Assembly: GCF_016026235.1 (NCBI RefSeq)
Contig: NZ_CP065613.1
Source of the DNA: Escherichia coli
Lineage (GTDB): Bacteria > Pseudomonadota > Gammaproteobacteria > Enterobacterales > Enterobacteriaceae
Direction: 5' to 3' (one strand)
Length of the DNA stretch: 64,000 nucleotides
Under the pieces are notes generated by a model. The model did no database searches and had not been told where the DNA came from. It worked only from the letters and a program-made list of their open reading frames with translations. Below are positions 20,716 to 23,556 of this stretch, one piece after another. Numbering within the stretch: the first letter of the stretch is position 1; the number at the start of each line of letters is the position of its first letter. Position numbers and translations under genes: made by a program.

Positions 20716-21006
20716 TTACTGAAAAAACACCGCGATCTTGTTAAACATCGTCGGATCGGACTGATTACGCTGCACTTTCACGACATCTTCCAGCTTATCG
20801 ATTTGGCTTATCATCTGCTCCAGACGCTGGTCGTCATTGACCAGTAGCCAGATATGGCTTTTGTCGCTGTCCTGAATCGGCAGACAAAGAATGCCTTCAA
20901 CGTTAAAAGCGCGGCGGGCAAAAAGGCCACAAACGTGGGTCATTACGCCCGGATGGTTGCGAACGGTGAGCTCCAGAATTACGTTGTTATGAGTTGTGTT
21001 TTGCAT
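20716..21006 (-). CDS. ilvN: acetolactate synthase I small (regulatory) subunit
   Basis: 96 aa; recognised as IlvN. Confidence 0.9.
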
Positions 21007-21009
21007 GGC

Positions 21010-22698
21010 TTATTCCCCCACCATTTCAGTATTCGCCGCACCTGGCGGCACCATCGGGTAAACTTTTTCTTCGGCATCAATGCGCACATGGATCAGCGCC
21101 GGGCCAGGGCGATTGATGATTTCCTGCAATGCAGCCTGCGGATCGGCTTCGTTATTCAAATCACAGGTTTCGAGGCCGAATCCGGCGGCAATCTGCATAA
21201 AGTTGATTTTGCCCGGATAGGTGGCGGCAAAAACGCCTTGCTCGTAGAACAGACTCTGTTGCTGATGCACCAGCCCCAGCGCTTCGTTGTTCATCAGAAT
21301 GATTTTGACATCCAGCTGATTTTCACTGGCGGTCGCCATCTCCTGAATATTCATCATCAGGCTGCCGTCGCCGGAGAAACACAACACTTTGCGATCCAGG
21401 TTCGCCAGCGCCGCGCCAATCGCCGCAGGCAGGCCAAAACCCATCGTGCCCAGCCCACCGGAGGTCAGCCACTGGCGTGGGCGATTGAGCGGATAAGCTT
21501 GCGCGGTCCACATCTGATGCTGACCCACATCGGTGGTGATAATCGCATTGTCATCGACACAGGCGGCAACGGCGTTGATCAGGCCGTAATGGCTTAATGG
21601 ATCGCACGCTTTCGGGATTGGACACGGGAATTCGCGCTGCAAATCCGCTACCAACTGGTGCCACTCTGCACGCGGTTGCGCTTCCACCTGCGGGATCAAT
21701 TGCGCCAGCACGTCATCAACATCAGCCTGAATCGCCACATGCGGCTGCTTGATTTTACCCAGCTCTGCGCGATCGATATCGACATGAATAATTTTGGCAT
21801 TCGGACAGAACTGCTCGGTTTTGCCAATCGCCCGGTCATCAAAACGCGCACCGAGCACTATCAACAAATCCGCCTCCTGCAAAATATAGTTGGTGCTGCG
21901 CACGCCGTGCATCCCCAGCATACCCAGCGACAACGGATGCGCTTTTGGCAACATGCCCAGCGCCATTAAAGTCATGGTGGTAGGCAGTTGCGCTTTCTCC
22001 GCCAGTTCACGCACCCGTGCGGGCGCATTGATCACACCGCCGCCCAGATAAAGCACCGGGCGTTTGGCAGCGTTAATCATCGCCGCTGCGTCACGAATGC
22101 TTTCTTCGCTAAAGGCGGGGGCGGCGGCTTTTTCTGCCATAGCGGGCTGTGTTTCAATCTCAAAAACTGCCGTTTGCACATCCTTAGGAATGTCTATCCA
22201 CACCGGGCCTGGGCGGCCTGATTGCGCAATGCGGAAGGCATCGCTCATGACCTGCGGGAGTTCTTCGATATGTCTGACCAGATAGTTGTGTTTGGTGATG
22301 GGGATAGAGATGCCGTAGGTGTCCACTTCCTGGAAGGCGTCGGTGCCGATCATCGAGGCGAGAACCTGACCGGTGATGCAAATCAGCGGGATGGAGTCCA
22401 GCCGCGCATCGGCAATGGCGGTCACCAGGTTAGTCGCACCCGGTCCGCTACAGGCCATACAGACCGCCGGTTTACCGTCGGTGCGCGCCATCCCCTGAGC
22501 GATAAATCCCGCGCCCTGTTCATGACGGGCCAGAATATGGCGGATTTGCGTGCTTTGGCTTAAGGCATCGTAAACAGGCAGGATAGAACCGCCCGGAATG
22601 CCCGTCACAATCTTAATGCCCTGCTGTTCCAGGAAATGAACGATAAATTCTGCGCCGGTAAAGCGCTTACGCGTCGATGTTGTGCCCGAACTTGCCAT
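21010..22698 (-). CDS. ilvB: acetolactate synthase I large subunit
   Basis: 562 aa, ThDP-dependent enzyme; recognised as IlvB. Confidence 0.95.
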   Translation of the reverse strand: MASSGTTSTRKRFTGAEFIVHFLEQQGIKIVTGIPGGSILPVYDALSQSTQIRHILARHEQGAGFIAQGMARTDGKPAVCMACSGPGATNLVTAIADARLDSIPLICITGQVLASMIGTDAFQEVDTYGISIPITKHNYLVRHIEELPQVMSDAFRIAQSGRPGPVWIDIPKDVQTAVFEIETQPAMAEKAAAPAFSEESIRDAAAMINAAKRPVLYLGGGVINAPARVRELAEKAQLPTTMTLMALGMLPKAHPLSLGMLGMHGVRSTNYILQEADLLIVLGARFDDRAIGKTEQFCPNAKIIHVDIDRAELGKIKQPHVAIQADVDDVLAQLIPQVEAQPRAEWHQLVADLQREFPCPIPKACDPLSHYGLINAVAACVDDNAIITTDVGQHQMWTAQAYPLNRPRQWLTSGGLGTMGFGLPAAIGAALANLDRKVLCFSGDGSLMMNIQEMATASENQLDVKIILMNNEALGLVHQQQSLFYEQGVFAATYPGKINFMQIAAGFGLETCDLNNEADPQAALQEIINRPGPALIHVRIDAEEKVYPMVPPGAANTEMVGE

Positions 22699-22745
22699 GC
22701 TCCAGTCCTTTTCTTCTGGGCCGACTTTCCGGGAGGTGCTTAAAC

Positions 22746-22780
22746 GAAAAACCCCGCCCGGTTTGCGCCGGCGGGGTTTT
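22746..22780 (-). terminator. ilvB attenuator (leader terminator)
   Basis: GC-rich hairpin CCCCGCCGGCGCAAACCGGGCGGGG followed by a U-run on the minus strand, between ivbL and ilvB. Confidence 0.7.
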
Positions 22781-22803
22781 GGAATCGTGTGTTGTTCCAG
22801 TCC

Positions 22804-22902
22804 CTACGGCGCATTGCCGACGACCACCACCACACGCACGACGACCACTGCGGCGGATGGCGCAGTTGGTAGTAGTTTTGCGTTGAACATGGAAGTAGTC
22901 AT
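22804..22902 (-). CDS. ivbL: ilvB operon leader peptide
   Basis: 32 codons MTTSMLNAKLLPTAPSAAVVVVRVVVVVGNAP read directly from the sequence; Val/Leu-rich, typical attenuation leader. Confidence 0.85.
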   Translation of the reverse strand: MTTSMFNAKLLPTAPSAAVVVVRVVVVVGNAP

Positions 22903-23029
22903 TGGGGACCTTGTTGGTTTTGTGTTTAACAATATTTATACAAGCACAGCTTTACAGGGGAGACAATGGAAAATTTTTCAGCAAGGGAAAATTGAGGGGT
23001 TGATCACGTTTTGCACTGAATTGCAGGTA

Positions 23030-23170
23030 ACAAAAAACCCCGCCGGAGCGAGGTTTCGTCAGCCGCCTGCGGCTGGTAACCGCAAAGCACACTGTATTAT
23101 GTCAACACTGAAAGTATACCTGTTCCGCGCAGAACGCGCAATTTCGGCACGAATTTTGACGTATTTAGTA
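23030..23170 (-). ncRNA. istR: IstR antitoxin sRNA region (IstR-1/IstR-2); 5' ends approximate
   Basis: Minus-strand hairpin plus U6 terminator near 23032-23053; contains a ~21-nt block (23087-23110) repeated upstream of tisB; sits divergent from a LexA-boxed promoter. Confidence 0.5.
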
Positions 23171-23212
23171 CATAGTTGAGTATCGATCACAGTTTGCGTT
23201 TTGTCCAAAAAT

Positions 23213-23466: not shown

Positions 23467-23556
23467 ATGAGCCTGGTGGATATCGCCATTCTTATCCTCA
23501 AACTCATTGTTGCAGCACTGCAACTGCTTGATGCTGTTCTGAAATACCTGAAGTAA
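23467..23556 (+). CDS. tisB: SOS-induced type I toxin TisB (29 aa membrane peptide)
   Basis: MSLVDIAILILKLIVAALQLLDAVLKYLK read from the sequence; too short for the ORF track. Confidence 0.85.
   Translation: MSLVDIAILILKLIVAALQLLDAVLKYLK

Follow-up and report, generated by a model that had tools for sequence, protein, structure and literature searches.

The ivbL leader upstream of ilvBN in Escherichia coli: elements, predicted alternative structures and conservation of a transcription attenuator

The region upstream of ilvB in the window (the whole stretch of Escherichia coli DNA that was analyzed, 64 kb) raises the question of whether a short reading frame and the hairpins that follow it control transcription of the ilvBN operon and, if so, which amino acids are sensed. 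A preliminary description of this DNA, made from the sequence, proposed attenuation by ribosome stalling with sensing of valine and leucine, and this reading is supported by family models, RefSeq annotation, folding and the literature on strain K-12. The feature can be assigned with high confidence to the ivbL–ilvBN transcription attenuator, a system in which the translating ribosome exerts the control and charged tRNA-Val and tRNA-Leu are sensed. The attenuator is intact, ordinary and already known, being annotated in essentially every E. coli genome; it was reportedly described in 1982 by Friden, Newman and Freundlich. Its role is to switch on ilvBN, encoding an enzyme of the valine/leucine pathway, when valine or leucine run short.

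The gene order at the locus is uhpB-uhpA-ilvN-ilvB-ivbL-istR/tisB-ysdE-emrD-yidF. The stop codon of ivbL (22804) is located directly upstream of the ilvB start codon (ATG at 22698) on the same strand, and ilvN follows. The controlled genes are as follows:

21010–22698, minus strand: ilvB, large subunit of acetohydroxy-acid synthase I, the regulated gene (equivalog NF006016, 1080 bits vs. 870; RefSeq)
20716–21006, minus strand: ilvN, small regulatory subunit, second gene of the operon (equivalog NF006036, 185.5 bits vs. 128)

A 321-nt query around ivbL was matched with an identity of at least 95% in 5418 of the 5426 complete E. coli genomes, and with an identity of at least 99% in 5378 of them. 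At every match listed, the RefSeq labels were ‘ilvB operon leader peptide IvbL’ for ivbL and ‘acetolactate synthase large subunit’ for ilvB. The RefSeq entry with DNA identical to the window likewise carries an annotated IvbL leader peptide followed by ilvB.

The leader reading frame extends on the minus strand from ATG at 22902 to TAG at 22806–22804 and contains 32 sense codons encoding MTTSMFNAKLLPTAPSAAVVVVRVVVVVGNAP. The 32-codon leader of the preliminary description, which named no strand, was found where it had been placed, while the peptide quoted there is wrong at residue 6, which in the window is Phe (TTC). Its run of Val codons preceded by Leu codons also holds for the nine Val codons and for CTA CTA; the third Leu (codon 6, quoted as MTTSML...) corresponds to the K-12 allele CTC and is Phe here; the peptide quoted is that of K-12 rather than that of the window. 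The elements of the reading frame are the following:

22804–22902, minus strand: ivbL leader ORF, 32 codons and TAG (sequence, curated family models and RefSeq annotation)
22885–22887, minus strand: codon 6, TTC (Phe); CTC (Leu) in K-12; a common natural polymorphism
22870–22875, minus strand: regulatory Leu codons 10–11, CUA CUA (CTACTA invariant or nearly so in 32 leaders)
22819–22848, minus strand: regulatory Val codons 19–22 and 24–28 (GUG GUC GUC GUG CGU GUG GUG GUG GUC GUC)

The Val run (22848–22819) is interrupted by Arg23. Two Leu codons (CTA CTA, 22875–22870) are present in ivbL of the window vs. three in the K-12 allele, which gives 11 regulatory Val and Leu codons here vs. 12 in K-12. 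The codon CUA is among the starvation-sensitive Leu codons, and leucine starvation slows translation at regulatory Leu codons (PMC3783181). The peptide matches the Pfam family PF08049 (IlvB_leader) over its full length, 1–32, with 75.7 bits at a cut-off of 25, and the NCBIfam equivalog NF007579 with 80.1 bits at a cut-off of 60.

Comparison with other species was based on a scan with a degenerate pattern of the Val run, one genome per species, which retrieved 31 other Enterobacterales leaders (32 with that of the window) from the genera Escherichia, Citrobacter, Enterobacter, Klebsiella, Kluyvera, Leclercia, Pluralibacter, Cedecea, Kosakonia, Serratia, Yersinia, Proteus and others. All 31 end in LL.TA...AAVVVVRVVVVVG.AP, and ilvB is located 91–163 nt past the leader stop codon in 29 of the 31 loci, no ilvB call being possible in the remaining two. 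These data bear on the reading in which the frame is open only by chance, the leader being rich in GC, and the role of the terminator is to end istR or other read-through transcripts from upstream. Many short frames do appear at the locus in mechanical ORF lists; however, the Val-run pattern has a single occurrence in the 64 kb window and none in 100 shuffled versions of it, even with two mismatches allowed, conservation of the leader ahead of ilvB extends to 31 other species, curated HMMs match the leader peptide, and istR has its own terminator at approximately 23049–23032. The probability of a chance frame is practically negligible. Two plus-strand ORFs lying across the leader, one of 165 aa (22682–23179) and one of 69 aa (22677–22886), were rejected as spurious, having neither a Pfam match nor a RefSeq annotation.

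The alleles of codon 6 were counted in 5426 complete E. coli genomes with 41-mers centered on the SNP, every 28-nt seed word being required to include the SNP. Phe was found in approximately 3240 genomes and Leu in approximately 2174; accordingly, the Leu6 allele of the K-12 reference is the minority form among complete E. coli genomes, a fact now documented. The SNP is located in an internal loop, the minimum free energy (MFE) is equal for both alleles and the predicted fold is unchanged. Across genera residue 6 is free to vary (L, F, M, T, N, Q and others); the CTA CTA codons, in contrast, show practically no variation. The experiments cited below were all performed with the K-12 Leu6 allele, and we infer that the Phe6 allele behaves like it. 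A smaller possibility is that the Phe6 allele, with one starvation-sensitive Leu codon fewer, measurably lowers the leucine sensitivity of the attenuator in about 60% of E. coli strains.

Positions in the transcript are counted on the assumption that it starts at 22928, 7 nt past a conserved TATAAA (assumed range 22927–22930). Folding of the transcript gave three structures upstream of ilvB, and the leader comprises the following elements:

22903–22928, minus strand: 5' UTR of the leader transcript, CA-rich, with an AAGG Shine–Dalgarno sequence at 22912–22909 (sequence)
22799–22910, minus strand: protector, comprising the 1:2 hairpin (22902–22820), an outer helix (22910–22905 with 22804–22799) and a mini-hairpin (22819–22816 with 22810–22807) (folding and pairing in 32 leaders)
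22802–22812, minus strand: 5' arm of the antiterminator, GCGCCGUAGGG, i.e., codons Ala31 and Pro32, the UAG stop codon and GG; pairs with 22775–22765
22765–22775, minus strand: 3' arm of the antiterminator, overlapping the 5' arm of the terminator (leader nt 154–156 and 159–161 shared with the terminator)
22781–22799, minus strand: small hairpin within the antiterminator loop (folding; alignment variation, e.g., GGAAC/GAUUCC vs. GGAUC/GAAUCC)
22748–22780, minus strand: intrinsic terminator hairpin with 5' arm 22780–22768, loop 22767–22762 and 3' arm 22761–22748 (folding; invariant in 32 leaders)
22745–22751, minus strand: U-tract (22751–22747) and 3' end of the attenuated transcript (22745) (K-12 Term-seq)

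The GC-rich hairpin with a U-tract announced in the preliminary description is present as the terminator, which contains 13 pairs (nt 149–161 with 168–181; −21.6 kcal/mol, z = −2.62), is followed by UUUUUCGUUU and is separated from the ilvB ATG (22698) by 49 nt. It was missed by a simple terminator scan, probably because of a one-base bulge that splits the stem. The antiterminator is formed by nt 117–122 with 159–164 and nt 125–127 with 154–156, with −19.5 kcal/mol including the inner hairpin. The protector occupies leader nt 19–130 (−46.9 kcal/mol), and its hairpin at nt 27–109 pairs the region of the Leu codons with that of the Val codons. The full leader folds with −71 kcal/mol (z = −3.67). 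Protector, antiterminator and terminator share nucleotides and are mutually exclusive in the predicted folds; the preliminary description had named a lack of such alternatives as the result that would refute it, and the opposite was obtained.

The MFE structure depends on the length of the transcript: the protector is formed at lengths of 130–156 nt, the antiterminator at 164–176 nt, and the protector together with the terminator at 181 nt and more. At 164–176 nt the antiterminator is the MFE structure even in the ribosome-free transcript (−57.7 vs. −49.4 kcal/mol), so the protector can play its role only if it is formed first and then persists. Folding would presumably proceed in the order protector, antiterminator, terminator.

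Equilibrium folding of the full leader with a ribosome mask was rejected as a model, since it says nothing about a kinetic switch: at every ribosome position the probability of the terminator was approximately 0.7–0.9. Since the terminator wins at equilibrium wherever the ribosome stands, which is what a kinetic switch would be expected to show, the switch can be argued only kinetically. Models of truncated transcripts were used instead, with folding allowed only downstream of the ribosome and before the 3' arm of the terminator is made. In this downstream-only model, the 5' arm of the terminator is sequestered (probability 0.69–0.90) for A-site codons up to approximately 27 and is freed (approximately 0.1) from codon 29–30 to the stop codon, a result stable for footprint edges from +10 to +16 nt. 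The arm is freed late in the ORF because the 5' arm of the antiterminator consists of the Ala31 and Pro32 codons and UAG. Formation of the antiterminator is thus predicted in silico to depend on ribosome position. For the K-12 allele, longer dwelling of the ribosome on the ivbL UAG stop codon was shown to result in more attenuation (PMC5373646), and the modelled masking late in the ORF agrees with this experiment.

According to the proposed mechanism, RNA polymerase would synthesize a leader of approximately 185 nt while a ribosome translates the 32 codons of ivbL. With valine and leucine plentiful, the ribosome would reach the end of the ORF and cover 22812–22802; with the 5' arm of the antiterminator covered in this way, the terminator at 22780–22748 would form and transcription would end at the U-tract, giving the 3' end at 22745. 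A shortage of charged tRNA-Val or tRNA-Leu would stall the ribosome on the Val codons at 22848–22819 or on CUA CUA at 22875–22870. Segment 22812–22802 would then remain free and pair with 22775–22765 once the latter is transcribed, and this pairing would block the terminator and allow the polymerase to read into ilvBN. If the leader is not translated, the protector at 22910–22799 would form first and hold the 5' arm of the antiterminator.

The terminator and both arms of the antiterminator are invariant in the 32 leaders, and 99.3% of antiterminator cells pair; because of this invariance, covariation is silent on both structures and speaks neither for nor against them. In the 32 leaders, 78% of the cells of the 1:2 hairpin are paired vs. 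28–67% for slid controls, and the outer helix of the protector pairs in 83% of cells. The 1:2 hairpin contains one compensatory pair at synonymous third positions, ACU...GCA vs. ACC...GCG (C-G in 19 leaders, U-A in 11), which lends comparative support to this predicted hairpin.

As a substitute for covariation, codon choice in the leader was compared with that for the same amino acids at conserved ilvB positions of the same genomes. The mean frequency of the commonest codon was 0.93 in the last 16 codons of the leader vs. 0.63 in ilvB (Mann–Whitney p = 1.6e-7). The choice of Val codons is nearly fixed across genera, GCG CCG (codons 31–32) is essentially fixed, and the stop codon is TAG in 30 of 32 leaders. 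Near-fixed synonymous sites indicate selection on the RNA or on specific codons, and not on the peptide alone. This bears on the reading in which the 32-residue peptide is itself the functional product, e.g., a small hydrophobic membrane peptide, and its adjacency to ilvB is coincidental or serves co-expression. The C-terminal half of the peptide is indeed highly conserved and hydrophobic, but the N-terminal third is free to change in both sequence and length, the conserved part is nearly fixed at its synonymous sites down to the stop codon, the end of the ORF forms an arm of the antiterminator, and ilvB adjacency is kept in 29 of 31 other loci, with no ilvB call in the other two. A functional peptide is therefore regarded as highly improbable. 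The coordinate-level structural model, with the antiterminator arm made of the last codons and the stop codon, is backed by these cross-genus and synonymous-site data.

Experimental data are available for E. coli K-12 (ivbL–ilvBN, b3672), in which the locus is the same (uhpBA-ilvNB-ivbL-istR/tisB-emrD) and the 321-nt leader region is identical to that of the window except for one base, with the same terminator, antiterminator, CUA CUA and Val codons. It is the literature on the K-12 allele that supplies the responsiveness to valine and leucine, the influence of ribosomes occupying the stop codon, and the 3' end at the terminator. Reporters ivbL-gfp with this allele respond to doses of leucine and valine (PMC11187965). 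At the terminator, the K-12 sequence is identical to the window, and Term-seq positions were converted by the coordinate offset. The K-12 3' end at 3852831 corresponds to position 22745 of the window, the G after GGGGUUUUUC, with an intrinsic-terminator score of 11.96 and ‘No’ for Rho dependence (PMC7815308).

Other layers of control are likely at this locus. The GcvB sRNA is predicted to bind near the ivbL AUG in the 5' UTR in K-12, and RNase E cleaves in the ivbL–ilvB spacer (PMC11347164). A Rho-dependent K-12 3' end at 3852587, flagged as uORF-associated (PMC7815308), corresponds to position 22501 of the window, minus strand, 197 nt into ilvB, and may represent a second, Rho-dependent checkpoint downstream of the attenuator. 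Together with a conserved CRP-like block upstream, these observations speak for a reading with a constitutive or Rho-assisted terminator, in which control of ilvBN lies mainly with the promoter (CRP–cAMP) or with GcvB and RNase E, and translation of the ORF only shields the RNA. This reading is nevertheless very unlikely: the 3' end at the U-tract is scored as Rho-independent with a high intrinsic-terminator score, the reporters answer to valine and leucine doses, and nine Val codons, CUA CUA and invariance at the codon level across genera would be left unexplained. Most likely, CRP, GcvB and RNase E are controls additional to attenuation rather than alternatives to it.

One K-12 observation is left unexplained by the simple attenuator model and counts against it. 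In two of three Term-seq conditions the dominant 3' end is not that at the U-tract, but 3852897, i.e., position 22811 of the window, or leader nt 118. On the minus strand this position falls inside codon 31, in the antiterminator's 5' arm, and the base of the 1:2 hairpin is 9 nt before it. It could reflect a hairpin-stabilized pause, trimming by an exonuclease as far as the hairpin, or a ribosome stalled at Val27–28, whose 3' edge it would mark. A list of known hairpin-stabilized polymerase pause sites includes ivbL (PMC11077087); the 3' end at nt 118 has the right geometry for such a pause and may be linked to it.

The upstream region contains the following conserved elements:

23002–23007, minus strand: GTGATC block, likely a CRP half-site, approximately 70 nt upstream of the assumed transcription start (kept in nearly all of 32 Enterobacterales upstream regions)
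22934–22966, minus strand: promoter region, TTGTC (22966–22962) and CTGTGCTTGTATAAAT (22949–22934), with a −10-like TATAAA at 22940–22935 (conserved blocks)

The blocks GTGATC, TTGTC and CTGTG.TTGTATAAAT are kept across genera and, judging by this conservation, probably mark the CRP site and promoter of ivbL–ilvBN. The title of Friden et al. 1982 reportedly pairs ‘attenuation and cyclic AMP’, and the likely assignment of GTGATC to a CRP half-site was made from that title. The distance from TTGTCT to TATAAA is 20 nt, an unusual spacing for a −35/−10 pair; a consensus promoter scan called no ivbL promoter at 22934–22966.

The ivbL leader resembles the classical enterobacterial attenuators trpL, leuL, ilvL, hisL, thrL and pheL in its short ORF rich in regulatory codons, in its alternative protector, antiterminator and terminator structures, in the hairpin-stabilized polymerase pause and in the intrinsic terminator preceding the first structural gene. 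It differs from them in sensing two amino acids, valine and leucine, and in having its last two codons and its stop codon built into the 5' arm of the antiterminator. A further difference, here from the Leu, His, Thr and Trp leaders, is the lack of a match in Rfam 15: no family reached the gathering threshold on the minus strand of the leader, the Leu_leader model RF00512 scored 12.1 bits at a threshold of 50, and the other sub-threshold matches were generic terminator hairpins. The structural model of ivbL could, accordingly, seed an Rfam family. In Corynebacterium glutamicum, a leader-peptide attenuator with a three-hairpin model likewise precedes an acetohydroxy-acid synthase operon, ilvBNC, and reportedly responds to branched-chain amino acids (PMC11857589). 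Leader sequence and organism are unrelated in that case, and the likeness is noted with no claim of homology.

Downstream of the terminator, one more conserved element was found:

22720–22741, minus strand: ‘segment 5’, conserved and complementary to the 3' arm of the terminator (32 leaders; formation only in read-through transcripts)

In each of the 32 leaders, which comprise 29 distinct sequences, the 40 nt past the U-tract show higher complementarity to the terminator region than their shuffled versions do (median z = −3.8), and segment 5 pairs in 85% of cells vs. 33–59% for slid controls. In 24 of the 32 leaders this pairing beats the terminator, a result that depends on the stretch folded: with the ilvB start included, the MFE structure of E. 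coli keeps the terminator. There is a small chance that segment 5 forms a fourth alternative structure in read-through transcripts and influences the processing or stability of ilvBN mRNA. The segment would then draw the spent terminator and the U-tract into one long hairpin, close to the ilvB ribosome-binding site on its upstream side; this structure would act, e.g., at the reported RNase E sites of the spacer and would constitute an undescribed post-decision layer of the attenuator. Masking of the ilvB ribosome-binding site by segment 5 with the terminator formed, and its release with the antiterminator formed, was rejected, the difference in mean accessibility (0.54 vs. 0.57 in 31 species) being negligible.

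Just upstream of the ivbL promoter, the window contains the istR sRNA (Rfam RF01400, 144.8 bits; 23032–23161, minus strand) and the type I toxin gene tisB (23467–23556, plus strand). In the soil isolate E. coli SC434, no tisB is annotated between ysdE and ivbL, the gap is approximately 245 nt rather than approximately 780 nt, and the sequence departs from that of the window upstream of the CRP-like block, which suggests that the tisB/istR module is missing or replaced in this strain. In Enterobacter cloacae, Enterobacter asburiae and a Pseudocitrobacter MAG, the ivbL frame is open to an earlier ATG, giving a mechanical ORF of 58 aa (MKIFPLSR...); this longer frame, with the conserved 32-codon start inside it, is probably an artefact that arises when the furthest ATG is taken as the start. 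The N-terminus of TisB is MSLVDIA... in the window and MNLVDIA... in the K-12-derived strain EPI300, i.e., the two differ by N2S.
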